Positions 41,790 to 64,000 of a stretch of 64,000 nt of DNA are shown piece by piece. Numbering within the stretch: the first letter of the stretch is position 1; every line of letters begins with the position of its first letter. The position numbers were made by a program, and so were the translations under genes. Source of the stretch: a virus; the IMG/VR virus record IMGVR_UViG_3300028030_000005, positions 1-64,000 of that record, one strand, 5' to 3'. The notes under the pieces were generated by a model. The model was not told where the DNA came from and ran no database searches. It worked only from the letters and a program-made list of their open reading frames with translations.

Positions 41790-42596
41790 TTATTCTACCA
41801 GCACCTTATTGCTCAATAAAGAATCTATCTTTTGTAAAATATTTGAAAATGTTGATTGGTTGATTGGTGGTGTAGATGTTACAGGAGCTCCTGCTACCAT
41901 TGTGGTTACTTGAATCTGCTGACACGCAGTTATCAAATCTTTTAACAGTTTTTTAAGCTCGTCTCCCAGTACAACCGGATGTTTTGCATTCTTACCTATC
42001 TCAATTTGCTTATCGATTTTGATAGCACTATCAACAGACTCTACCGTCAACTCAATCACTTCTGATGCATCGAGCTCGATTTGTTTTTGTGAAATATTGA
42101 TTGATGATTGTATTTCGTCTGCAATGGCCTTAAATGCAATACTTGACCCTATCGATGGTTGAGAATGTACTACCACACTATACGTTCCTGAAGTTAAATC
42201 AATTGTTCTGCTATAACTAATAGATTCGAATTGCTTATGTTGTACATATCTATTTTCTTGCATTAATTGCGTCTCATCGGCTCGTAAATGAGTTGATACG
42301 ATTGAAACCTGACTATTTTCATCAACAACATATCTGACTAACGTTCCGTATTGTCCTGGTAGTTGTGGAAATGTTAGTTCGTCGATTAATTCTTTTGGAA
42401 TTGACACGTTATTTATCACTTGATTGTAGTTTGTTACTATACTACATAAAAGAGTTGAATATACGTGATTTATATACTGATTTCTTTGTATATCTGATGG
42501 AACGATTACATAGGCAAATCCGCCTTGCTTATTCTTATCAATATCAACGCGCTTCGTTAATTTCAGTGATTTATGTAATCTACGATTTTTTGCCAT
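41790..42596 (-). CDS. Baseplate central spike (gpV/gp5-like)
   Basis: OB-fold-like N-part, beta-rich middle, C-terminal PVVLGDEL...TSTPPIN; likely start MAKNRR at 42596. Confidence 0.6.
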   Translation of the reverse strand: MAKNRRLHKSLKLTKRVDIDKNKQGGFAYVIVPSDIQRNQYINHVYSTLLCSIVTNYNQVINNVSIPKELIDELTFPQLPGQYGTLVRYVVDENSQVSIVSTHLRADETQLMQENRYVQHKQFESISYSRTIDLTSGTYSVVVHSQPSIGSSIAFKAIADEIQSSINISQKQIELDASEVIELTVESVDSAIKIDKQIEIGKNAKHPVVLGDELKKLLKDLITACQQIQVTTMVAGAPVTSTPPINQSTFSNILQKIDSLLSNKVLVE

Positions 42597-45411
42597 AACT
42601 GAATTGCATTTTTCTGATAAAAAATTGCAGTACATCAGAATTTAACTGCATATTTGATTTGTAATTGAATTTATTGCTCACCTTCCCTTTGGTAATTGTG
42701 TCGTAAACTCCTTGCTTCAAATTATCAATATTTACGATATTGAAGTATGATACTGAAATATTCTTTTCGACTCCCTTAATCTTTATTTTAACCGGAATTT
42801 CACGAATATATCGCTTGACCATTCCTCGCTCAACAGTCAACGTAGTAGTACGTTCGATGTTGTTATTTGAAATCGTTATATTATTGCTTACTGACTTAAC
42901 ATAGAACACTTCCTTAGTCGGTCGATAATATATCCAGTGACCTATCTTGATTCTACGGTCACCATTCACAGTAATTGTACCTTCTCTTGTAAATGGTAGA
43001 TAGATGTTACTTTCGACAATATAGCTCAATAATTGTGCTGCTTGTTCTGCGTATAGGTCTATTTGTTTGTTTTGATTTTTGTTGTTGAAAAAGTATTGAT
43101 TGCTGTAATTTGACGTGACTTCGAGCAGTTTATTGCCAAATATCTGCGCGTATTCATCAAAATAAAGAGATGGTACGTGTCCTAATGATACGGTGTTTCC
43201 TGCAAAATTCCCTTTATCTGTTATTTTGTACCACGCATATGCTTCATTACTAAATTGCAAATCCTCACGAATCACGTCGTCAGAATTGATGTTTATTATT
43301 CGTGGGAAATTCGCTGATGACTTAATAACCACTTCGTCAAGCTCTATCCCTTGTTTTGGAATTAATAGGCCATCGTCAGTAACAATAATGTCTGATTTTC
43401 CTGTTTTTTTTGATTGAGTTTTTTGTTGTGATTGTTGAGTTTGTTTGTATTTATTTTTTTGTGTGGCAGTTGCTGTTCCTACAGTAGATTGGGTTGATTT
43501 GTATTGAGAAAAATCTCCCATATCATCAGCATCAATCTGATTAATCATCGCCATTACAGCATCTTGTGTTACTGGCGGTTGTCTGAAATTTAGATAGTAC
43601 TTGTCTCCATACGTATCTGCAAAAAACTCTACAAACGGTCTTTGAGCTATTTTTTGAAACAGCTGTAGAATATTGCCCTTTGGATTCATTATGCTATCGT
43701 CAATGATTCTTAACTGCCGTACATTATCGTCAACAAAAACTTTGATAATCTGCCAAATTCCATTAGTACGTTTTGTTGACTTTATTAAATCGCTGGTAAC
43801 CACTTGCGTTTTATTATTCCACTGACTGAATACCTCGTCAGGAATGTAACCAATCGATGCTATACGATTAGTTATAAATTCTACTTGCTGTTGTATTGTT
43901 CTTGGAATAACCGCGCTTAATAATTTGAATTCGCCGTTTAACATTCGGTCCGATAATTTACCACCGTAAATACTTTGGCTGTGTCCGATGCTATAAGGAT
44001 TAAAATAACTATTATCGTCAGTCAAAACTTTTATCAAATCTCTACCGCGAATTGAAATTGATGATTCATTTGTTGCTGCTGTTATGTCCTTACCCACAAC
44101 ATCTACCATCGCAATCATATCATACCATTTGTTTGAAGGTATTTGGCTTGAATCATTGTCAATGTCTAATTCCTCAAACGATATTAGTAATAGGTCGTTC
44201 TGATGAATCAACTGCTGATAGTAAAATAGTGGTTGAGTATATTCGCTCGATACATTTTCTCCATCAGAATAAACTTTAGACTTATTGACACTACCCAAAT
44301 TCACAACACCATTGTCTGTTTGTATTACAGTAGAGTCTGATATCTTTGCTGGTAGTGTAATTGAAAAGTTCCCTCCAGCATCGAGTGATATATTAGTCGT
44401 AGCACTAACAATATCGTTTGTAATGTTAATCCATCCAGGAAACCCTTGTAGGTGTAGAGCTCTTGACCACAACCAGATATTAAGTTGTGGATAAATTTGT
44501 TTTGCATCAACTCCTCTGTTATATATTGCTGGAACAAATCCAGGGTCGTTGGTTAAGTGACGTAATATCGGAGCAAAATATTGTATAGAGTTGCTTTTTG
44601 TAATCGTTATATTTGATTGTACCAGATTTTCAAGTGATATCCATTCTTGTTTTATATACACAACAGTTCCTACAGCGATTTTATAATCAAACTCAGAATC
44701 ATATTCAATTTTATCTGATTGTTGTTTTCTTTGTTTATTCGACAGCGCATCATATATTCTGCGATGATTTGTCTTGTTTTTATAAGTAAATTGTAAAAAT
44801 TGCTGCTTTTTCACAACAACATTGCGAAATCTGTCTGTTTTTAACAACTCATCGACAGATATTGATTGAGATACTTGATATGGCGTCGTTTTTTCAGCTG
44901 TTGATTGAATGACTTTTACATCGTCGATGCTACTCTTTTCATTTTCGTCGTCACAAGCTGCTTGAAATAAGTTGGTTGGGTTTTGAATAATGTTGTTGAA
45001 TCGCACTTCCAGATGAACGTGATTCGTTATTCCTTTGTATTTTTTGTAAAGATTTTCAGCCGTTCCTATCACATTACCAACTGCAATAGTTTGCCCAACC
45101 ACAACGTTTGGTTTTGCGTATAAAATTTTAACAGTCACTCCTTTAGCACATCCCATTCCTTTAATGATAATAGAATCATATCTATTGTCGTCACTATATG
45201 CTTTTCCTACGTGGATGATTGTTCCTGGAATTGGCGAGCGAATGTCTTGTCCTGTATAGGTCACTATATCGATTCCTTTGTGAGCGCCCGGAACACTGAC
45301 CCACTTACCATTGATTTTTCGCTTTCTACTGGCACCAAATGCGCCCGAACCCGCAGCATCTTTACCGCGGAATCGTTGATTTGGTACTATGTCGTGTAAT
45401 ATTGGTTTCAT
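42580..45411 (-). CDS. Baseplate hub with an N-terminal M23 (LECT2-like) peptidase domain
   Basis: HKGID...HVHLE zinc motifs; hub motifs IRGRDLIKVL, PFVEFF and GTITVNGDRRIKIG. Confidence 0.75.
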   Translation of the reverse strand: MKPILHDIVPNQRFRGKDAAGSGAFGASRKRKINGKWVSVPGAHKGIDIVTYTGQDIRSPIPGTIIHVGKAYSDDNRYDSIIIKGMGCAKGVTVKILYAKPNVVVGQTIAVGNVIGTAENLYKKYKGITNHVHLEVRFNNIIQNPTNLFQAACDDENEKSSIDDVKVIQSTAEKTTPYQVSQSISVDELLKTDRFRNVVVKKQQFLQFTYKNKTNHRRIYDALSNKQRKQQSDKIEYDSEFDYKIAVGTVVYIKQEWISLENLVQSNITITKSNSIQYFAPILRHLTNDPGFVPAIYNRGVDAKQIYPQLNIWLWSRALHLQGFPGWINITNDIVSATTNISLDAGGNFSITLPAKISDSTVIQTDNGVVNLGSVNKSKVYSDGENVSSEYTQPLFYYQQLIHQNDLLLISFEELDIDNDSSQIPSNKWYDMIAMVDVVGKDITAATNESSISIRGRDLIKVLTDDNSYFNPYSIGHSQSIYGGKLSDRMLNGEFKLLSAVIPRTIQQQVEFITNRIASIGYIPDEVFSQWNNKTQVVTSDLIKSTKRTNGIWQIIKVFVDDNVRQLRIIDDSIMNPKGNILQLFQKIAQRPFVEFFADTYGDKYYLNFRQPPVTQDAVMAMINQIDADDMGDFSQYKSTQSTVGTATATQKNKYKQTQQSQQKTQSKKTGKSDIIVTDDGLLIPKQGIELDEVVIKSSANFPRIININSDDVIREDLQFSNEAYAWYKITDKGNFAGNTVSLGHVPSLYFDEYAQIFGNKLLEVTSNYSNQYFFNNKNQNKQIDLYAEQAAQLLSYIVESNIYLPFTREGTITVNGDRRIKIGHWIYYRPTKEVFYVKSVSNNITISNNNIERTTTLTVERGMVKRYIREIPVKIKIKGVEKNISVSYFNIVNIDNLKQGVYDTITKGKVSNKFNYKSNMQLNSDVLQFFIRKMQFSYGKKS

Positions 45412-54378: not shown

Positions 54379-55902
54379 TTAGAAATTTCGTCCGATATTT
54401 ACAAATCTTATCATCTTGCTTGGCGCATAAACGATAGGAGTACCGTACAATAATACCATAAAACGGTCGGCAGGGCTTAATTTTGCAAGCGGCATTTTCA
54501 TAAGCGGAGCTAATTGTTTGAATTCAATAACATCTGTATCTCCTTGTAACAATAATGCTTCCTCAGTTCCAGGCAACCAACGGTTTCTGTCACGTACTTT
54601 ACCAGCTGCTGCTCCATCCACTCCATTTGCTAACGAACCACGTTTTGTATCAGTTCCTGCTGCAGGAACGACCATAATCGGATACATTGTGGTTTTGTTA
54701 AATGGTGTTGACGGGTCTTTTAATGAGCGATATACAACATATGCGTTCGGTGTGTAAGCACCTGCAGTTGCTGTAAATGTCAAATCGACACTATCGTCAG
54801 CATTTGCGATGGTTACTGTGTTGCCTACTTGCGTCATTGCACTTTCGCCATATCGGTTAATTGCAGATACTGCATAGTAGTAATCGCCGATTCCGTCAGC
54901 AAATTTGCTGTGTCCGTCATTTGCTACTACATCAGCTGATACTGCTGTAGGTGCAGAAGGTGCTTTGGATGAGCTTGCCGGAGCTACTGAAAGTTTGCCA
55001 GGTGCTTTTGCTGCAAAAATGTCGTATTCGAAATCAATCAAACCGTACATTGATTGGAATTTACTGATGTGCTGACCAGTGGTCATTCCTTTAGTATTAG
55101 CATTTTGACTTCCACCAATCATTACGCGTTGTTTAGCGTAGAATTCGGTTGCAAAGTCAGATAATACTACAGGCGGCGCAATCAATAAGTTCGCTTGGGC
55201 AAATTTGTTCAATAATGTTTGAGCCCCTTTCTCAAGGTTTTCTTGTTTCAAGACACTTCCTCGCAGGTCAATCACTAACTCAGAATCCATATATTCATCT
55301 AAGTTGGCAAATTGGTCGTTGTTCATATGCTGCGCATATAAGCCGTTCCACTCTTGCTTAACGACTTTTTCATCACCGGTAAATAAAGCTCTATCCGCTT
55401 TTCTTAAAATCCACAAGATTCCGTTAGTAGTTTCTCTACGAACGATATCTCCGACGTTGGTATTTACGAGCTGCATTTGATGTGTGACGGATTTGGTAAC
55501 ACCCAAATACTTCACGTGTTCAGCTTTACGAACGTATTTAGAATCCTCTTCTTCCGGCAATTCGCCTTCGTTATTGAATCCTCCACGGTCGCTACCGTAG
55601 CTCGTTAATTGGTTGTACTCCTCAACAGTGTTAAACGCTGCTGTTTTCGGGAAACGTTTCCAGAAGCGAATATCGCTTTCTTTAAACGTAATAAGTTTCA
55701 AAGAGCTTTCCAAACTCTCTGTTTTCAATGCACCACCATTGGTTTGATTTCCGGACATATCTCCACCTTGAAGCTGTCCAGCTTCAAGCGCTTTTGATAA
55801 TTCAGCAAGTTGGTCTGCCGTTAAATTGGCTTGTCCCATTGCTGCTCCGTCAAATCCTGCACCGTGTTGGTAGTCTGCAAGATTTACTGAAAGATTTTCC
55901 AT
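54379..55902 (-). CDS. Major capsid protein (HK97 fold, Herelleviridae-like)
   Basis: LSKAL propeptide, GGALKTESLE, TVEEY, PLMKMPLA and LYGT motifs; followed by a terminator. Confidence 0.9.
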   Translation of the reverse strand: MENLSVNLADYQHGAGFDGAAMGQANLTADQLAELSKALEAGQLQGGDMSGNQTNGGALKTESLESSLKLITFKESDIRFWKRFPKTAAFNTVEEYNQLTSYGSDRGGFNNEGELPEEEDSKYVRKAEHVKYLGVTKSVTHQMQLVNTNVGDIVRRETTNGILWILRKADRALFTGDEKVVKQEWNGLYAQHMNNDQFANLDEYMDSELVIDLRGSVLKQENLEKGAQTLLNKFAQANLLIAPPVVLSDFATEFYAKQRVMIGGSQNANTKGMTTGQHISKFQSMYGLIDFEYDIFAAKAPGKLSVAPASSSKAPSAPTAVSADVVANDGHSKFADGIGDYYYAVSAINRYGESAMTQVGNTVTIANADDSVDLTFTATAGAYTPNAYVVYRSLKDPSTPFNKTTMYPIMVVPAAGTDTKRGSLANGVDGAAAGKVRDRNRWLPGTEEALLLQGDTDVIEFKQLAPLMKMPLAKLSPADRFMVLLYGTPIVYAPSKMIRFVNIGRNF

Positions 55903-55966: not shown

Positions 55967-57400
55967 TTACTTCACTAATGTGATGCCTAATTGTTGAGCT
56001 TTAGCAATTAAATTTTTACCAACTGCACCGGCTTGCTCAAACATCATAATTTCAGATGCTACAACTTTATCAGTAATTCCTTCGTCGGTTGTAATTGCTT
56101 TTGTCAATGTGTCGAGAATCTGTCTTTTATCTTTTGTGACCGACAAAACGTTTCCGGCTGGCTTTTTGTTCAAATCGTCATCAAAAGATTTTTCAACATA
56201 ACTCTTTGTAGTGACACTTTTTCGTTGAACGGGCTGAGATTCGATACTGTCTAATCTTTCATTCAAATCACTGATTTGGTCCATCAATGATTTTTGAATC
56301 GTTCCTACAGCTTCGAATTTCTCATCAAGTTCGTCGTGAAGGTGCTCGTTATGTTCTTTTAACAATACACCAATTCCTTTGAGCAATTTACTTGAATCCA
56401 CTTCACCATCAGAAATATCTTTCGATGCAATTTGTCCTTTCAAAACTTCGATTTCAGCTAACGCTTTTTCTAATTTTTGTTCAACAACAGAAGCTACGTC
56501 CGTTGCTTGTTCAGTATTTACATCAGCTCCTACTTCAGTAGTGGCTGTATCGTCCGGAGTTTGTTCTGTTGTAGCAGCCTCTGCTGGTTCGTCAGTTAAT
56601 TCTAACGCTTGTAATGCTTTTTCAATTGCTTCCTCAGAAACTTCTTTGATGGTTTTTTTATCTTTTGCCATATTGATTGATTTTTCAATTTTTAATGTAA
56701 GTTCGTATAATTTTTCGGCACCTACAATTGATATATGTGGTAAATCTCGGAAAATTTTTTCAAAGAATGCACCTTTAGAAAAAGTTTTTTTAACTCCCTC
56801 TATCAAATCCTCCTTTGCTAATGCACGTCCGCTTGCTGATTCTGCCGACAGCGCTTTTTCACGAGTTTCGTCGTCCATATTTTCGTATGCCGATAATTTA
56901 TTAAAATTATGTGATTTGATAATTTCTGTTACTGTATCACTATTTTTGGGGTTTGGAGTGATTGCACATCCTGTAATTCTTGCTTCAAGCACTTTCGCAG
57001 GATTGTCTTTATCTCGTTTTAAAACTTCTCCTTCGATAGATAATCCGAGAGCCATCCCTTGTGCTTCAAGTAATTTTTGAAGTTCGTAAATCTGTTGTGC
57101 TTTAACACTATCTGGAAATAAGTAGAATTCAATAACCAACTGCCCTTTACTGTTTACTTTTGCAGATATAGGTCGTCCAACTAATGCGAGTGGGTCTTTA
57201 TTGGTTTGATGATTCCAGTTCATATATCCGTACTTCAAAAAGTACGAGACATCAAATCCTTTCGGGTCAAGATATTCTCCGTCCGCATCCAACGAAGGTG
57301 TTGATGCGATTCCTCGCATTTTCATCACCTTAGAATTGCCTTCACCTGCTTTTACCAGGTGTAGTGTTGCGTTAAACTTTATCGTTGAATTGCTCGTCAT
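55967..57400 (-). CDS. Prohead protease with a C-terminal scaffold region
   Basis: GIAST...D.DGE, NWNH, LSIEG and AIT..P.N; long coiled-coil C-terminus. Confidence 0.88.
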   Translation of the reverse strand: MTSNSTIKFNATLHLVKAGEGNSKVMKMRGIASTPSLDADGEYLDPKGFDVSYFLKYGYMNWNHQTNKDPLALVGRPISAKVNSKGQLVIEFYLFPDSVKAQQIYELQKLLEAQGMALGLSIEGEVLKRDKDNPAKVLEARITGCAITPNPKNSDTVTEIIKSHNFNKLSAYENMDDETREKALSAESASGRALAKEDLIEGVKKTFSKGAFFEKIFRDLPHISIVGAEKLYELTLKIEKSINMAKDKKTIKEVSEEAIEKALQALELTDEPAEAATTEQTPDDTATTEVGADVNTEQATDVASVVEQKLEKALAEIEVLKGQIASKDISDGEVDSSKLLKGIGVLLKEHNEHLHDELDEKFEAVGTIQKSLMDQISDLNERLDSIESQPVQRKSVTTKSYVEKSFDDDLNKKPAGNVLSVTKDKRQILDTLTKAITTDEGITDKVVASEIMMFEQAGAVGKNLIAKAQQLGITLVK

Positions 57401-57941
57401 AACTTTCGTCTAAAAACCACTTATTCAATCTCTGCTTCAATACCTTCAATACAAACGATGTTTCTGTTAATCCTAATTTGTCGAGATTTTCAAAAACACT
57501 TATCAATAGTTGAACAATAATCATATTGAATACTGCATAAAATAGCCATTTGTGTATATTGATATCGAAATCAAAGACTTCAGGAGTTGGCAGATGTTTT
57601 GCAAATATATTCAATACTCCTAATATAACTGTATATGCCCCTATCTTTATAATCATTCTACCGAATTTCCTCGATTGAATTTTTTGACCTTGTTTCAGAG
57701 ATGCCATTATGCCGGTCACAAACTCTCCTACAAGTAAAATTATAAATGCTACGTAAACCAATGCTGTCACACCTATATACTCCTCTATTAATGTTGCTAA
57801 ATAACCGGTCAGTGTGATTAGCAACACTCCAAAAGCAGATAGGTGCTTATAGTGAAATGTGCTATTTAGAAAATCGTCTATATTTCTATATCCGAATCCT
57901 TGTAACCAATAGGTTACCCAGTATATAACACTATTAATCAT
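57372..57941 (-). CDS. Holin (phage holin 4-like)
   Basis: TM segments; FVTGIMAS...IQSRK...K...LISVFENL..LG. Confidence 0.75.
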   Translation of the reverse strand: MINSVIYWVTYWLQGFGYRNIDDFLNSTFHYKHLSAFGVLLITLTGYLATLIEEYIGVTALVYVAFIILLVGEFVTGIMASLKQGQKIQSRKFGRMIIKIGAYTVILGVLNIFAKHLPTPEVFDFDINIHKWLFYAVFNMIIVQLLISVFENLDKLGLTETSFVLKVLKQRLNKWFLDESYDEQFNDKV

Positions 57942-58469: not shown

Positions 58470-59431
58470 ATCTCTGTTGTTTTTCCGTTTACAGTTACTT
58501 TTACTTTACTACGTCTTTTAACTTTTCGAGTCCATTTTGTCTTATCGTGAACAAATTGACTACCGTCCCAATACCATTCTCCTGTTTTTAATCCTTCTAA
58601 CGTAAATCCATTTGGTACGTCCATTAGCGTACATCTGCAGTAGGGATGTGTCGGTCCCACTACCGGTTTTAGCTCTTTTACCTTTCGACCTACATTAGTG
58701 CCATTTTGTTTCAGGTCATATAATTTGAATAATATTGGTTGCGAACCCACCCCTGCTGTTGTGTATAATCTTTGACAGTGCGGACACGCACCTGCATATA
58801 CATCTTTATAAACTAATGCATCTGCTCCTTTCTTTCGTTGTACCATCATTGCCCTACCTTCATCAAATGCTGTGTGCATTACGTAGTCAGAGATTCTTGC
58901 TAAATCACGATTCCATTGTTGTGTTTTCTTTCCTATTGTTGACGTTACTTCTGTCACTGACTTTCTATCTGCAATTGCTTTTGCAGCTGCGTCAGTGACG
59001 AGTTTACTGTGCTTTACAGTATGTCGTTTTTTATCTGCAAATACTAATTCATCTGCAATTTGAGACTTGATTCGATTCGTTAATCGTGTAACGTCGTTAT
59101 ATGTTTGAGACTTAATGTTTTTCAGAGCAGCTCTTTCTAATGGATTCAACTTAAACATTTTGCCAGAGCTGATATATTGTTTAAGCTGCTTGTAGTCCAT
59201 ATTCATCACAGCAGCTTTCCCTAATGCTTCTGACAACAATCCAAACTTGAATGCGTGTTCAACGACACTTGTATCTTTCGCAATCGATTTATAGTTTATT
59301 CCTGCGTTTGTTAAGATAGATTTATCTTTTGATGATAGTACTTCTGTTCCTACATTATAAGCAATGAAGGTTAGTGTGTATCTATCTAAAATAGACAATA
59401 ACTCTTGTATTTGATTTGGATTTAGAATCAT
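58466..59431 (-). CDS. MuF / SPP1 gp7-like minor head protein
   Basis: ACPHC...PTHPYCRC. Confidence 0.85.
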   Translation of the reverse strand: MILNPNQIQELLSILDRYTLTFIAYNVGTEVLSSKDKSILTNAGINYKSIAKDTSVVEHAFKFGLLSEALGKAAVMNMDYKQLKQYISSGKMFKLNPLERAALKNIKSQTYNDVTRLTNRIKSQIADELVFADKKRHTVKHSKLVTDAAAKAIADRKSVTEVTSTIGKKTQQWNRDLARISDYVMHTAFDEGRAMMVQRKKGADALVYKDVYAGACPHCQRLYTTAGVGSQPILFKLYDLKQNGTNVGRKVKELKPVVGPTHPYCRCTLMDVPNGFTLEGLKTGEWYWDGSQFVHDKTKWTRKVKRRSKVKVTVNGKTTEI

Positions 59432-59646
59432 AATTTATCTAACTCATCTAATACAATGTAGTAGAAAGAATACATTTCGTATTCCAACAACACGTCTGCA
59501 AGATTATCCAGAACTACCTCCTGAGAAAATTGTGTGTTGTTTATTTTTAGCCATTGTCTGAATTCAGACATCGACATATCGCTTAACAATAATCGTGGGT
59601 CTGTTTGCAATTTAGCAGCTTTATTATTTATTTGCTCAACTGTCAT
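59428..59646 (-). CDS. Hypothetical protein (72 aa)
   Basis: ORF track; translationally coupled. Confidence 0.55.
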   Translation of the reverse strand: MTVEQINNKAAKLQTDPRLLLSDMSMSEFRQWLKINNTQFSQEVVLDNLADVLLEYEMYSFYYIVLDELDKL

Positions 59647-60161
59647 TGTATCTCAGATATCGTGATTAAATCATCGCCGTCACCATTACTTTCTTGATAC
59701 CAGTTATCTATCACTTCCTCTAAGCTATCAGCGCCCCACTCGTCTAATAAATCATCAATCTCATCCTGGCTATATCCTTGAAATCTGTTATGCAATAAGT
59801 GTTGAATCACATCACTCCCTCTCCCAATATAAACTTCATTGCCTTCTCCAGGACCGTATCTTTCGTAAGGAGTTATTGTGATTGCATACGTTTTGTTCAA
59901 ATCAATGTCTTTAACTGATTTAACGTCCTTTAAACCTTTGGTTGATGGCGCTCGATTAATGTTTTTAGCACTATATAACTCTTTTTTAGATATTGATTTC
60001 GGTTTTTTGTCTTTTTTAACAGGAACCCACTTACCTTCTGCAACCTTCTTAAATCCACGAGAAACGGTTCCTATAGGAACCTTTCTCCCCTTCTCTATGT
60101 TACCTAAAGTAGATATCTGCTTTACTACAGATTCTTTATGATGTTTAATAGTATTATCCAT
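59643..60161 (-). CDS. Putative head-cargo protein: shared IEKG-PIGT leader plus an acidic C-domain
   Basis: N-terminal ~58 aa are near-identical in part to those of 61313..61786. Confidence 0.65.
   Translation of the reverse strand: MDNTIKHHKESVVKQISTLGNIEKGRKVPIGTVSRGFKKVAEGKWVPVKKDKKPKSISKKELYSAKNINRAPSTKGLKDVKSVKDIDLNKTYAITITPYERYGPGEGNEVYIGRGSDVIQHLLHNRFQGYSQDEIDDLLDEWGADSLEEVIDNWYQESNGDGDDLITISEIQ
59988..60043. repeat. 56-bp direct repeat, copy 1
   Basis: One mismatch versus 61613-61668. Confidence 0.9.
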
Positions 60162-60273
60162 TTTTAGACTGTTTTTTACGTTTTACTAATTCAATTCCTA
60201 TCATTTTTTTATAAATACCGTCGTCCATACTACGATATGCTGTTAATAATTGTTGTGTTGTGTATTTTTCCAT
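60154..60273 (-). CDS. Small hypothetical protein (39 aa)
   Basis: MEKYTTQQLL...QSKNG read by hand; fills the gap. Confidence 0.45.
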   Translation of the reverse strand: MEKYTTQQLLTAYRSMDDGIYKKMIGIELVKRKKQSKNG

Positions 60274-60285
60274 AACTTTTTGATT

Positions 60286-61308
60286 TTATGCCATCATTGC
60301 TACAGCAACTTCTTTCCAATCTAAATTCGAACCAGATTCTGTTACTTTTTTCTTGATTAGTGCTATTTGTCCTAATGTTCGCGCATTCAAATCGCCTATA
60401 TCGATTTTGTCAGAAATCTCTTCTAAGAAGTCGATTGCTGCTTCTCTATCATCAGCACTAACCTGAATCGGATTGCCGTGATTGTCTTGAAACGGCATCT
60501 TGTGAATGAACGTTCTCATTCGCTCGATTGTTTCTTTTGGAGTCATTGAAAGGTCGATTGTTAGTGAGCGCGACCTTAGTGGCTGCGGCATTTCTTTTGC
60601 TGATAAATTGCTGATGAATATTACCTTTCCTGCGAATGTGAACCTTTGTGGAATTGGCTCTCCGTCAGAATCCTTAATTTTCTTTGCAGAACCATACGAA
60701 ATTGTACCATCTCCTGTAGTATCTAACGCTCCTTTCAAAATATTAATTGATGTTGGGTCCTCCAGTACACTATCACAATCGTCAAATATTAATAACTTAC
60801 CATTATGTTCGTACAACGCTTTGTATAGTGCTGTCGGAGTTGATTTTCCTGTGATTTTGATATAATCATAGCTATCAGAACCAGGCAAGTGTATGTCCTC
60901 GAGATATTCTTGTAGGTTGTGACGTTTCAGCGATTGTGTGACTGTGTACGTCTTTCCTACACCACCTATACCATATGAAATTGCACTTTTACCAAGTCCA
61001 TCGATTACCATATCGATAAACAACTCATAACTTTGCCAACGTTCGTGTACTCCTACAGGCGGTAATTTACTGACTGCTTTATCAAGTTCTTGTAGCTCTT
61101 TTTCTACTGAGTCATCTTTCGATTGATTATTCGAAGGTAGTGGTGAGTGATATTTCCATCCTTGTGCTGTTTTGATGAACATTCCATTCGGACGCTTTTT
61201 GATAGTTCCTATAGGTAGTGCGCGTGCTTTTTCAATAACATTACCAATATTTGACTTCACAATATTGTTAATTACTTGTTGTTTATGTTTTCTTATAATA
61301 TCGTCCAT
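60286..61308 (-). CDS. AAA+-type ATPase carrying the IEKA-PIGT leader
   Basis: GIGGVGKT Walker A, LLIFDDCD Walker B, NILKGALD, IFISN and LRSR. Confidence 0.8.
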   Translation of the reverse strand: MDDIIRKHKQQVINNIVKSNIGNVIEKARALPIGTIKKRPNGMFIKTAQGWKYHSPLPSNNQSKDDSVEKELQELDKAVSKLPPVGVHERWQSYELFIDMVIDGLGKSAISYGIGGVGKTYTVTQSLKRHNLQEYLEDIHLPGSDSYDYIKITGKSTPTALYKALYEHNGKLLIFDDCDSVLEDPTSINILKGALDTTGDGTISYGSAKKIKDSDGEPIPQRFTFAGKVIFISNLSAKEMPQPLRSRSLTIDLSMTPKETIERMRTFIHKMPFQDNHGNPIQVSADDREAAIDFLEEISDKIDIGDLNARTLGQIALIKKKVTESGSNLDWKEVAVAMMA

Positions 61309-61312
61309 TATT

Positions 61313-61786
61313 CTAAATTTTCTTTTTTATAATTATAGCTGGCATTTCGGTTCCGTACGCTCTACCCCTACCAGCTGTTTGAATCGTTATCGTTTCCCAT
61401 ACATCGAATCCTAATTTTTTAGCATAGTTTTTTATCTTTTTGTATTTTGGATTATTTAAGAAAATAGTAACAGTTAATATATTTTTATTTTTCCCACTAA
61501 AAAGTTTTTTGTAATGGCCGCTATACAACTTCCCGTATTCTTTTATTTTACTCCAATCTTGATTTAGTATTTCTTTATTTCGAGTTTGGATATCGTCGAG
61601 AGTGTCTTCTACAGATATTGATTTTGGTTTTTTGTCTTTTTTAACAGGAACCCACTTACCTTCTGCAATTTTCTTTAAACCATTATGAACTGTTCCTATA
61701 GGCACTTTTCGTCCTTTCTCAATATCGTTCCCTAACGACATAATTTGTTGAGTTATTGCTAACCTATGTTTTTGAATGTTATCCAT
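61313..61786 (-). CDS. Putative head-cargo protein: shared IEKG-PIGT leader plus a basic C-domain
   Basis: Leader paralogous to that of 59643..60161. Confidence 0.65.
   Translation of the reverse strand: MDNIQKHRLAITQQIMSLGNDIEKGRKVPIGTVHNGLKKIAEGKWVPVKKDKKPKSISVEDTLDDIQTRNKEILNQDWSKIKEYGKLYSGHYKKLFSGKNKNILTVTIFLNNPKYKKIKNYAKKLGFDVWETITIQTAGRGRAYGTEMPAIIIKKKI
61613..61668. repeat. 56-bp direct repeat, copy 2
   Basis: agatattgattttggttttttgtcttttttaacaggaacccacttaccttctgcaa. Confidence 0.9.
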
Positions 61787-62613
61787 TACTGCTTGATTTT
61801 CAAAGTTCCATTATCGTTCCACAAAGCTCCTACTGGCAATCCACTATCTGATGTCGGCAATTCCGGCATAATTATCTTTGGAGTGTTGAATGTTAGATGC
61901 TTAGCTCCTCCCATCATTATCCCTTCAATGATAGATTTGAGTCCATCTGTTTGGTCAGGATTTCCTATTTTAATCACACCAATTTTGTTTGGACCTGATG
62001 CAAATAGTCTATGTCCTATATACAAATTGTATGACCCTGTCTGCAATCCGTTTCCTGCTTCATTGCCAATGGCAATATTGTGATGTCCAGTAGTTATACT
62101 TCGTAAAGTGGACACTCCTAAAGCAATGTTATGATATCCTGAGCATCTCCATAAAGTTTCTTTTCCAATAGCAATATTGTAGTTTCCGGTTATTCTTTGT
62201 CCAGCACTATATCCAATTGCAACGTTGTGGTGTCCTGCTGTATTCATATATAACGAATAGCTACCAAAACTCGTATTTCCGTTACCGGTTTTATTAGAAT
62301 ATTGAGAACCATATCCTATTGCCGTGTTATTATCTCCAGAAAGCTGTTTATTCATCGTCCAGTGACCTATGAATGTATTATATTTGTTCTTTGTTGCTAT
62401 AAGGTCGGTATCAGTTGCTCCAACTATCAAATCTTTATTGTCTTCTAAACTCTGCAATCCTGTTGCGATAATTCTCCCATCATCGTTCAATGAAGGAAAT
62501 TGCGAAATTATCCAGTATAACTGCTTTTTCAATTCGTCGTCAGTCTCTTGCAGTGAATACTTGCTCTTACTTATTGCTTGAATTGCTTCTAATATTACAT
62601 CTATTCTTGCCAT
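61786..62613 (-). CDS. Fibre/adhesin-like protein with N.AIG (YadA-head-like) repeats
   Basis: Repeats of G..N.A(I/L)G about every 13-14 aa; C-terminal LPTSD.GL..GALWND.GTLKI. Confidence 0.7.
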   Translation of the reverse strand: MARIDVILEAIQAISKSKYSLQETDDELKKQLYWIISQFPSLNDDGRIIATGLQSLEDNKDLIVGATDTDLIATKNKYNTFIGHWTMNKQLSGDNNTAIGYGSQYSNKTGNGNTSFGSYSLYMNTAGHHNVAIGYSAGQRITGNYNIAIGKETLWRCSGYHNIALGVSTLRSITTGHHNIAIGNEAGNGLQTGSYNLYIGHRLFASGPNKIGVIKIGNPDQTDGLKSIIEGIMMGGAKHLTFNTPKIIMPELPTSDSGLPVGALWNDNGTLKIKQ

Positions 62614-63011
62614 TATTTAATCATTTTTAATACATCTAAATTCAAAGATAAAATTTCTTTCGGTAATTTACTCAACTCAAACCATTTCATCTGTGAGAAT
62701 TCGTTATTTGGCGTTAATTTCGGTTTTTTATCGTTTGTTTTTAAAACGAAAAACGCAACGAATGGTTTAGTCGGGTGTACAATCATTGGCAATCTCAAAG
62801 GATGTGCTATGATGCCAGCTTCCTCATATGTTTCACGAATTGCACTTTGAAGTGGATATTCGTTTCCATCAACTCCACCTCCAGGAAAAACCCACTTTCC
62901 GTCTCGTTCATCGTTTTGTCCTACTGACATTCCAAGAAGCAGGTTGTTATCATTATCAAATACGATAGCGACTGCTGCTTTTATTTCTTGCTTAAATCCT
63001 TTGAGTATCAT
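62613..63011 (-). CDS. Nudix hydrolase
   Basis: Nudix box GGGVDGNEYPLQSAIRETYEEAG. Confidence 0.92.
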   Translation of the reverse strand: MILKGFKQEIKAAVAIVFDNDNNLLLGMSVGQNDERDGKWVFPGGGVDGNEYPLQSAIRETYEEAGIIAHPLRLPMIVHPTKPFVAFFVLKTNDKKPKLTPNNEFSQMKWFELSKLPKEILSLNLDVLKMIK

Positions 63012-64000
63012 TAGTAAATTGTTCTAATATATTCCGCAACTTTTTTTGGACTGCGGTAGGTCTTTATTGCACTGTTGTAATGCTTTTTCATCATATTATC
63101 CACATCCTTCGGATTATTTCCGTATTTAACCAACAACTCTCTTACCTTTGATTTATGTTGCGCCAAAACTTCATCAGATTTCTTTAAAGTTAGTTCGTGA
63201 ATATTATCATCGATTTCTTTTCCTACAACATATTCCTTTCCATTATGTTTAATAGTTTCGCCTGGTTTGTAGAGTTTTTCCTCTGTATCGGGGTCGAGAA
63301 CATCGATTGTTAATTTTCCTCCATCATCAATTACGAAAGGATGTTCGTCAAACGAAGCCAGTTCGTCTTTGTATAGTTTCTTAGCGTCCGCATCGATTTT
63401 AGCTGCTTTGTCAGGATATTTTTCTTTCAGCTTTTTAATTTCTTGCTCTACTGCGTACGGAATATCGTGTTTGTCTGATGCTGCTCTATCGAGCGCAGTT
63501 TTTAACTCATTGATAGAGTATTTTGATGAGTTAGATTTCTTTTGTTTATTATTCATATGGTCAGACACAAGGTTTCTCAAGGTAGATGACTTCATTGTGT
63601 CTGTATGATACACTCCATTTTTCTTAGCATATTCTGTCAACTCATCTCGTGACATCGATGCTGCAGTTTTCTTATCAGACTTACTCGCTTGATGATGTTG
63701 TTGAGCTTTTTGACCAGTTCCTTTGCCGTAATATTTCCAACCAGACGATGTTTTTATGTATTGACGTCCACCAAACTTTTTAACTGTTCCGATTGGATGA
63801 ATTGTTCGTGCTTTTTCGATACCGAGAAGTTCAAATGCTTTTGAGACTTTGTCATCAAAAATATTTTCGTTGTTTATAGTTTTTGCTCGTACGAGACCTT
63901 CAACTATATCGACAACGTCATCTTTTGAAAGATTTTCGTGCCACGAACCTTCTTTGATGTTGTGTTTAGCTATCGACAAAGACAATCCTCTTATAGCAGC
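63011..64000 (-). CDS. Putative head-cargo protein with an internal IEKA-PIGT module; 5'-truncated by the window edge
   Basis: Frame is open to 64000; contains GIEKARTIHPIGTVKKFGGRQYIKTSSGWKY. Confidence 0.6.
   Translation of the reverse strand, partial: AAIRGLSLSIAKHNIKEGSWHENLSKDDVVDIVEGLVRAKTINNENIFDDKVSKAFELLGIEKARTIHPIGTVKKFGGRQYIKTSSGWKYYGKGTGQKAQQHHQASKSDKKTAASMSRDELTEYAKKNGVYHTDTMKSSTLRNLVSDHMNNKQKKSNSSKYSINELKTALDRAASDKHDIPYAVEQEIKKLKEKYPDKAAKIDADAKKLYKDELASFDEHPFVIDDGGKLTIDVLDPDTEEKLYKPGETIKHNGKEYVVGKEIDDNIHELTLKKSDEVLAQHKSKVRELLVKYGNNPKDVDNMMKKHYNSAIKTYRSPKKVAEYIRTIY

Follow-up and report, generated by a model that had tools for sequence, protein, structure and literature searches.

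The first 64 kb of IMGVR_UViG_3300028030_000005, a 97,645-bp IMG/VR record of a phage genome that is 94% complete, were analysed here (positions 1 to 64,000, hereafter the window). Within its head-gene block, four proteins, named P1 to P4, share a module of about 45 residues joined to unrelated payloads. Almost every gene of this phage lies on the minus strand. Along the direction of transcription the block consists of the portal, a 247-amino-acid (aa) protein, P4, a NUDIX hydrolase, a 275-aa repeat protein, P3, P2, P1, a 72-aa open reading frame (ORF), a MuF-like gene, two small ORFs, a holin, a protease-scaffold protein and the major capsid protein (Table 1). Since several adjacent genes overlap by 1 or 4 nucleotides (nt), they form one tightly packed block. 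A preliminary description of the window had pointed out four ORFs with a shared module. These are real, all four are located on the minus strand, P1-P3 start as described, and the observation proved larger than described. For the ORF at 63011 an internal module had been reported, which is present; the full-length P4, which extends beyond the window, adds an N-terminal and a second internal copy.

P1, P2 and P3 are single-unit proteins and P4 comprises three units, with one N-terminal module copy (aa 1-69) and two internal ones (aa 475-539 and 800-853). All four proteins start with the pattern MD..I.K[HR][KR]..[VI]...I, the N-terminus of P4 (MDFNIINKRKQIIKNI) resembling those of P1-P3. In the latter three the pattern reads MD..I.KH[KR]..[VI]...I and is followed by IEK[GA]R..PIGT[VI] and then by K...G(K)W. 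A profile built from 43 aligned module copies (profile A4) identified exactly six copies in the 97.6-kb genome, all of them in these four genes, between the portal and the MuF-like gene, and none elsewhere; with E-values from 1e-20 to 1e-14, a chance resemblance is excluded. Every module has an isoelectric point (pI) of about 10, while payload values are 4.4 for P1, 5.2 for P2, 9.8 for P3 and 5.5, 9.4 and 8.9 for the units of P4. The divergence of the sequences after the module, already noted in the preliminary description, was confirmed by BLASTP, in which the payloads were mutually unrelated.

No Pfam or PHROG family was matched by P1, and an ESM Atlas search with its payload returned nothing usable; the same resource gave a weak GNAT-like hint for the payload of P3 (template modelling (TM) score about 0.5, with a poor model as query). 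P2 had been described as an AAA+ ATPase, of which a P-loop NTPase stands: the protein belongs to phrog_1250, a PHROG family without assigned function, and has a Walker A (GGVGKT) and a Walker B (IFDDCD) motif, both recognised by eye, but the Pfam AAA models remain below their cut-off of 27 bits (AAA_14 16.4 bits, AAA_22 14 bits). The PDB match of P2 was ORC1, at a weak E of 0.12. An AlphaFold2 model of P2 based on five sequences again showed a helix, three strands and a linker, at low confidence (predicted local distance difference test, pLDDT, 52). The third unit of P4 contains a stretch resembling a helix-extension-helix, identified by eye, and a weak phrog_3281 match; none of the P4 units matches a named effector.

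The module is composed of a variable helix, the motif phi-x-K-[GAS]-[KR] (phi being hydrophobic) and a basic three-stranded mini-sheet with the signature P-[IV]-G-[TE]-[IV]...K...G-x-W. In a sequence logo computed over 353 distinct module copies, the motif, which is a candidate cleavage site, consists of a hydrophobic residue (92%), any residue (Glu in 49%), Lys (95%), Gly/Ala/Ser (93%) and Lys/Arg (87%). The hairpin starts with x-x-Pro (71%)-[IV]-Gly (99%)-[TE]-[IV], followed by [YF]-x-Lys (98%), and ends with x-x-x-Gly (90%)-x-Trp (99%)-x-x-Val and a Lys-rich tail. From the 43-copy alignment AlphaFold2 predicted a helix at residues 3-18, a coil at the phi-x-K site and the three-stranded sheet at residues 33-47, with a pLDDT of 83-89 over residues 31-50. 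No Pfam or PHROG family, LPD families included, spans the module, and no structural relative was found by PDB profile search, Foldseek or VIA-align (best Z 2.6).

The two parts of the module behave differently between genomes. Over the 20 residues preceding phi-x-K, identity is 0.30 within a genome versus 0.19 between genomes, a difference reached by none of 2000 label permutations (0/2000), and for the helix of N-terminal copies alone the values are 0.48 and 0.21. For the hairpin they are 0.52 within and 0.50 between genomes, which 566 of 2000 permutations reach. The helix is genome-specific and the hairpin is universal. The former fits a match to the phage's own machinery, and the latter fits the binding of a target common to all. 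Some N-terminal copies have only 3-6 residues ahead of the phi-x-K site, so the helix is not always needed.

In a HMMER pass over 1.84 billion representative proteins, 2,170 matched at E<=1e-3, of which 272 reached E<=1e-10; as many as five copies occurred per protein, and protein lengths extended to 2,551 aa. Architecture was evaluated in the 185 retrieved best-scoring proteins, a set enriched for multi-copy ones. The module stands at the start of 126 of these and at the end of 7, at least two copies are present in 132, and copies are spaced about 250 aa apart with about 235 aa after the last one. The usual layout is thus [module-payload]n.

When 134 module proteins were scanned against Pfam, the payloads recognised were NUDIX (in 7/134), InPase, LPD1, DUF5661, ART-PolyVal, Kinase-PolyVal, Zeta toxin and S-AdoMet lyase, as well as topoisomerase IB, ddrB-ParB, PBECR2, SNF2/DEAD helicases, RadC, poly(A) polymerase and HNH. 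One 2553-aa module protein, in viral locus L014, combines InPase, Zeta toxin and SNF2. None of the 134 proteins scanned contains a MuF, portal or protease domain. InPase lies behind the module in one phage and is fused to a MuF-like protein in another, the latter being the homologue in viral locus L027. In roughly 10 of the 134 proteins (among them L014:11845-19503, L027:2447-4861 and P0010), DUF5661 was located directly upstream of the module start or showed a short overlap with it of a few residues, and it may be one lineage's form of the leader; the Pfam model has no match to the four proteins of the window and does not cover the hairpin. The preliminary description had proposed a module profile and a catalogue of its fusion partners, and the module profile now finds 2,170 clusters, the partners including effector domains of polyvalent proteins (see below).

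Genomic contexts were taken from IMG/VR loci only, 25 of which were found via the P1/P3 module. Module genes follow the portal in 13 of these loci and lie among capsid or connector genes in another 10, and the remaining 2 are short fragments without markers; a head-gene context is thus seen in 23/25. It had been considered that the module might occur mainly outside head neighbourhoods, which is not so in these viral-contig data. Runs of two to six neighbouring module genes are common (six in L010, five in L024), and in a 95%-complete relative all five copies are found within 14 kb by its portal. The only cultured carrier found was Chryseobacterium phage MA9V-3 (PV245944), in which the genes are arranged in the same order. 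Of its five matches to the profile, four are strong and lie in three proteins; the fifth is weak, a module-like stretch (14-19 bits) at the end of its NUDIX homologue. MA9V-3 was also the sole match when the whole of P4 was used in tblastn; the 62-aa module gave no tblastn match in 50,697 phage records, and megablast of the region gave none either. Two pattern scans of 185,579 prokaryote genomes returned no copy, the patterns being narrow and thus weak evidence of absence from prophages; they hint that prophage copies, if any, are rare. Phage CP-51, a kayvirus and Bacteroides phage DAC16 have the same capsid/protease type and no module.

Some of these properties would also be expected if the module were a small nucleic-acid- or protein-binding domain needed in the infected cell, for example to dock on host or phage DNA, and served neither for loading nor for cleavage; in that case the proteins might still be virion-borne by other means, or simply late-expressed. 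Such a domain would account for a basic hairpin with conserved aromatics and Lys that is universal across phages, for the internal recurrence of the module, for copies nearly without leader and for the many payloads that act on DNA or nucleotides. It leaves unexplained, however, why each unit carries the module at its N-terminal side and hardly ever at a C-terminus, why the helix is genome-specific and phi-x-K-[GAS] invariant in a predicted coil, and why copies are confined to the portal-to-capsid block. We consider this explanation rather unlikely.

Comparison with relatives showed that the units are mobile. In a close relative (82-89% identity) the P4 homologue has 596 aa and corresponds to P4 residues 1-157, 530-689 and 800-865 plus a new tail, while part of the third payload of P4 (905-967) is encoded by another gene, of 318 aa, which has a leader and a module at its own N-terminus. 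One and the same unit can thus be internal or stand-alone. Within the window, the modules of P1 and P3 are covered by a 119-nt direct DNA repeat of 84% identity (59980-60098 and 61605-61723) with unrelated flanks, which suggests a recent exchange or conversion of the header cassette of these two genes. The repeat, together with the rearrangement of cassettes among close relatives at junctions in or near modules, could be explained by a homology block that is kept by recombination or gene conversion and serves, functionless in itself, as a shuffling linker of late-operon accessory genes. Yet DNA identity is confined to this one pair, and in the proteins invariant residues persist over 353 copies with about 50% identity and over 2,170 clusters, which implies purifying selection on the peptide. 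A functionless linker is therefore very improbable.

Payloads can also exchange one header for another. A different N-terminal tag was encountered in Bacteroides phage DAC16, of which the P2-type ATPase (L036:2809-3108, DAC16_79) is without the module and instead carries the sequence ..DTPQNRKLGRVG.., with the motif DTPxNRKLGRVG. This tag (..YSDTPQNRKLGRVG..) is present on five DAC16 proteins, two of which are encoded between the portal and capsid genes. It has the appearance of another header system, unrelated to the module, attached to the same payload.

With respect to the candidate site, the phage encodes a prohead protease followed by a scaffold-like coiled coil. The N-terminal 200 aa of this protein match Peptidase_S78 at 24.7 bits, above the cut-off of 21, and the protein shares 34-35% identity with its counterparts in CP-51 and a kayvirus (Herelleviridae). 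Sites resembling that of the module occur in the protease-scaffold protein itself (REK/ALSA, IEK/S, IEK/ALQA and LEK/A, the slash marking the putative cut) and near the N-terminus of the capsid protein (LSK37/ALEA). The motif K-A-L-[SEQ]-A occurs four times in the 31,255-residue proteome, namely at aa 37 of the capsid protein, at aa 182 and 261 of the protease-scaffold and at aa 547 of the portal. In all capsid proteins of module phages L-x-K-A-L-x-A is found near aa 35, and at the equivalent place in CP-51 and SPO1; CP-51 has NK/ALSAG in its capsid protein and EK/ALSAG in its protease. K-A-L-[SEQ]-A is a candidate recognition site of this branch of S78 proteases. Of the ten occurrences of IEK[GAS], module proteins and the protease-scaffold account for eight, and [ILV]EK[GAS] is 5.4-fold denser within the head block. 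In phage HK97, gp5 is cut between Lys103 and Ser104. The kayvirus capsid gene product reads ...QEDVVK24-S25FQTGYGITPDTQ, and this protein is represented in the PDB by one entry of 463 aa and by the newer 9row, of 439 aa, starting from Ser25. The evidence for a protease site is circumstantial but consistent, and we regard a cut after Lys by the S78 prohead protease as about evenly balanced. A cut of the type I-x-E/K, as in T4, was also considered and rejected, Glu being conserved in 49% of copies versus 95% for Lys.

The Lys sites common to capsid, protease and portal, the [module-payload]n layout and the switching of units between internal and stand-alone positions are also what would be seen if the header were a recognition and cleavage cassette that punctuates polyproteins for a phage or host protease, loading being brought about by the MuF-like protein or by the payload. 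Iyer et al. (2017; PMC5512222) likewise reason that processing has to divide polyvalent proteins into units. However, the single-unit proteins P1-P3 need no punctuation and yet keep a full header, and a 6-residue site would not require a conserved sheet of 25 residues. This alternative is judged distinctly unlikely.

The best explanation, towards which we lean with some reserve, is that the module acts as a cargo header for proteins carried inside the capsid by this phage lineage; that the module proteins are virion-internal cargo is probable. Each unit is built, in this order, from a short phage-specific helix, an exposed phi-x-Lys followed by Gly/Ala/Ser and Lys/Arg, a basic three-stranded mini-sheet with invariant Gly, Lys, Gly and Trp, and a Lys-rich disordered linker with the payload. 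According to the proposed mechanism, the header would bring the protein into the procapsid, where the S78 prohead protease would cut after Lys, removing the phage-specific helix and dividing proteins with several units, for example P4 with its 1079 aa, into individual ones. At the new N-terminus the basic hairpin would remain and hold the payload on packaged DNA or the capsid interior, and the payload would leave together with the genome. The module itself, its copy number, the [module-payload]n layout, the head-gene context, the payload repertoire and the helix/hairpin split are observed, and packaging, cut, hairpin role and injection are inferred. That the hairpin binds DNA or the capsid interior is put forward tentatively. 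So is, as a speculative extension, a two-part address code, in which each phage reads its helix with its own assembly machinery and then removes it at phi-x-K/[GAS], and the universal mini-sheet keeps the payload with the DNA. Given that toxin-like and DNA-acting enzymes in more than 2,000 clusters likewise have the header in front of them, it probably labels head-carried proteins.

The address tag of the preliminary description agrees with part of these results, namely a portable module on unrelated payloads in 2,170 clusters, 23/25 head loci, effector partners of the polyvalent type and a plausible Lys-[GAS] cut by the head protease. Its form as a plain T4-like cleaved N-terminal leader is not supported, given that the module recurs inside long proteins and that some N-terminal copies have 3-6 residues before the site. 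The hairpin, the most conserved part, would moreover remain on the mature cargo, because it lies downstream of the putative cut.

Several points weigh against the cargo header. Two complete module-bearing genomes, the records behind L020 and L025 (84.9 and 85.1 kb, 99-100% complete, with the same capsid type), contain no phrog_1028 match, and no protease model is matched by the genes that precede the capsid gene in them; the link to the protease is thus not universal, or the enzyme is too diverged to be detected. In these phages the module is carried by a 130-aa protein or by a large protein close to its C-terminus. L-x-K-A motifs are common in helices, and phi-x-K may have a structural role. 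That the Ser25 start of 9row is the mature end, produced by a cut after Lys24, is our own reading; the start derives from PDB chain lengths, and in the literature searched no paper was found that gives the cleavage site of SPO1/Twort-type capsid proteins. The likeness of helices within a genome could come from gene conversion alone, paralogues being kin. Furthermore, no fusion joins the module to a known capsid-internal anchor, so a direct domain link is lacking, and the hairpin has no detectable structural relative, its charge and aromatics suggesting that it may bind DNA.

One of the closest described parallels is that of phage-type polyvalent proteins (Iyer, Burroughs, Anand, de Souza, Aravind 2017; PMC5512222), multi-unit polypeptides that have been predicted to be packaged and processed. 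Module proteins share with them InPase, ART-PolyVal, Kinase-PolyVal, ddrB-ParB, PBECR2, LPD1, Zeta toxin, NUDIX and SNF2 domains and a late or virion gene context, here between the portal and the MuF-like, protease and capsid genes. In contrast to polyvalent proteins, none of the 134 module proteins (0/134) has MuF, portal or any other domain recognised as serving for anchoring or processing. An unnamed module without Pfam match stands at the head of each unit, and the units of this phage are mostly separate small genes and not one giant protein. P1-P4 themselves have no Pfam polyvalent hallmark domain (MuF, ART-PolyVal, ddrB-ParB, PBECR, LPD, MPTase and others) at E<0.1; module proteins of other phages do contain such hallmarks.

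In phage T4, a capsid-targeting sequence is present on the internal proteins IPI-III and Alt and is cut by gp21 at I/L-x-E (Mullaney & Black 1996, cited in PMC12991175; PMC9026906). Both systems have a short shared N-terminal peptide on unrelated proteins, here beside a candidate head-protease site, and the fate proposed for the present phage, with prohead loading, trimming and injection together with the DNA, is comparable. They differ in that there is no sequence likeness, the putative cut follows Lys and not Glu, and the protease is of the S78 and not the T4 type. The module is also found internally, and its best conserved part follows the cut and would stay on the cargo. Giant phages offer a further precedent: many of their head-internal proteins, some of them paralogous, are cut by the prohead protease, as are portal and protease, and the ejection proteins of SPN3US, phiKZ and 201phi2-1 have N-terminal propeptides of 20-254 aa with a Glu-ending motif (PMC10052503, PMC7411985). 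Those propeptides occur in paralogue families, whereas here one compact module is found on non-homologous payloads in thousands of clusters.

Jamet et al. are also said to have described, in 2017, MuF-fused polymorphic toxins of temperate phages. The similarity lies in variable toxin-like domains on a constant head-associated part, encoded after the portal, but the constant part is here a 45-residue header and not a MuF domain. The concept is known from the T4 capsid-targeting sequence, giant-phage propeptides and polyvalent proteins; undescribed in Pfam, PHROGs, the PDB and the literature searched are this module, its two-part design, a header on every unit and the MuF-independent split form.

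If the header loads and releases cargo, a sequence rule would predict, for uncultured phages, the proteins that accompany the genome, in more than 2,000 clusters. Many of these are toxin-like or DNA- or nucleotide-modifying enzymes, which could then act before any phage gene is expressed, and the polyvalent-protein strategy would also have a split variant that is independent of MuF. For a large branch of S78 head proteases, a cut after Lys would emerge as the specificity, and a compact tag would become testable for loading chosen proteins into capsids. Should the two-part code be true, any enzyme could be plugged in as stand-alone gene or as polyprotein bead and, taken together with the DTPxNRKLGRVG tag of DAC16, lineage-specific cargo headers would constitute a general, unrecognised layer of phage biology.

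Table 1. Features of the head-gene block and its module copies. Positions are those of the window unless marked as positions of the record.
Feature	Position	Strand	Remarks
Portal	67147-68859 of record		PF04860, 98 bits
P4, 1079 aa	63011-66250 of record	minus	window holds the C-terminal third, 63011..64000
Module copies 1 and 2 of P4	66050-66208 and 64640-64810 of record		beyond the window
Module copy 3 of P4 (internal)	63701..63871	minus	E 8.5e-16
NUDIX hydrolase, 132 aa	62613..63011	minus	without module; PF00293, 62.6 bits (cut-off 21.1)
275-aa protein with GxxNxAIG repeats	61786..62613	minus	without module, amid cargo genes; phrog_4636 tail spike, phrog_6002 virion structural
P3, 157 aa	61313..61786	minus	header + basic payload (pI 9.8)
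Module copy of P3	61619..61774	minus	E 1.0e-20
P2, 340 aa	60286..61308	minus	header + P-loop NTPase payload; phrog_1250, 3.8e-38
Module copy of P2	61120..61290	minus	E 9.5e-15
P1, 172 aa	59643..60161	minus	header (aa 1 to about 50) + Lys-rich linker + acidic payload (pI 4.4)
Module copy of P1	59994..60146	minus	profile A4, E 4.8e-20
72-aa ORF	59428..59646	minus	4-nt overlap with P1 and with the MuF-like gene
MuF-like minor head protein, 321 aa	58466..59431	minus	CxxC ... HPYCRC; PF04233, E 0.077
Holin	57372-57941		PF05105, 43 bits; within the head-assembly block, between MuF-like gene and protease
Prohead protease (Peptidase_S78) + scaffold-like coiled coil, 477 aa	55967..57400	minus	phrog_1028, 1.3e-32
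Major capsid protein, SPO1/Twort type, 507 aa	54379..55902	minus	phrog_752, 4.9e-86
K-A-L-[SEQ]-A sites	55780-55800 (capsid); 56615-56860 (protease-scaffold); about 67210 of record (portal)		candidate sites

Among the neighbouring genes, the NUDIX hydrolase was correctly named in the preliminary description. For the MuF neighbour, the PF04233 match lies in the right ORF and spans the full profile (positions 3-112), but it is weak, at 10 bits against a curated cut-off of 29.6, and the protein, which is the only match in the genome, is at most MuF-like. No match to the PHROG head-morphogenesis family was obtained for this protein; its HPYCRC motif resembles the C-terminal motif of MuF proteins. 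Outside the head block, a 943-aa protein (42580-45411) has, by eye, an M23 peptidase-like stretch near its start (..GAHKGIDI..) and is probably a tail lysin or tape-measure-like protein.

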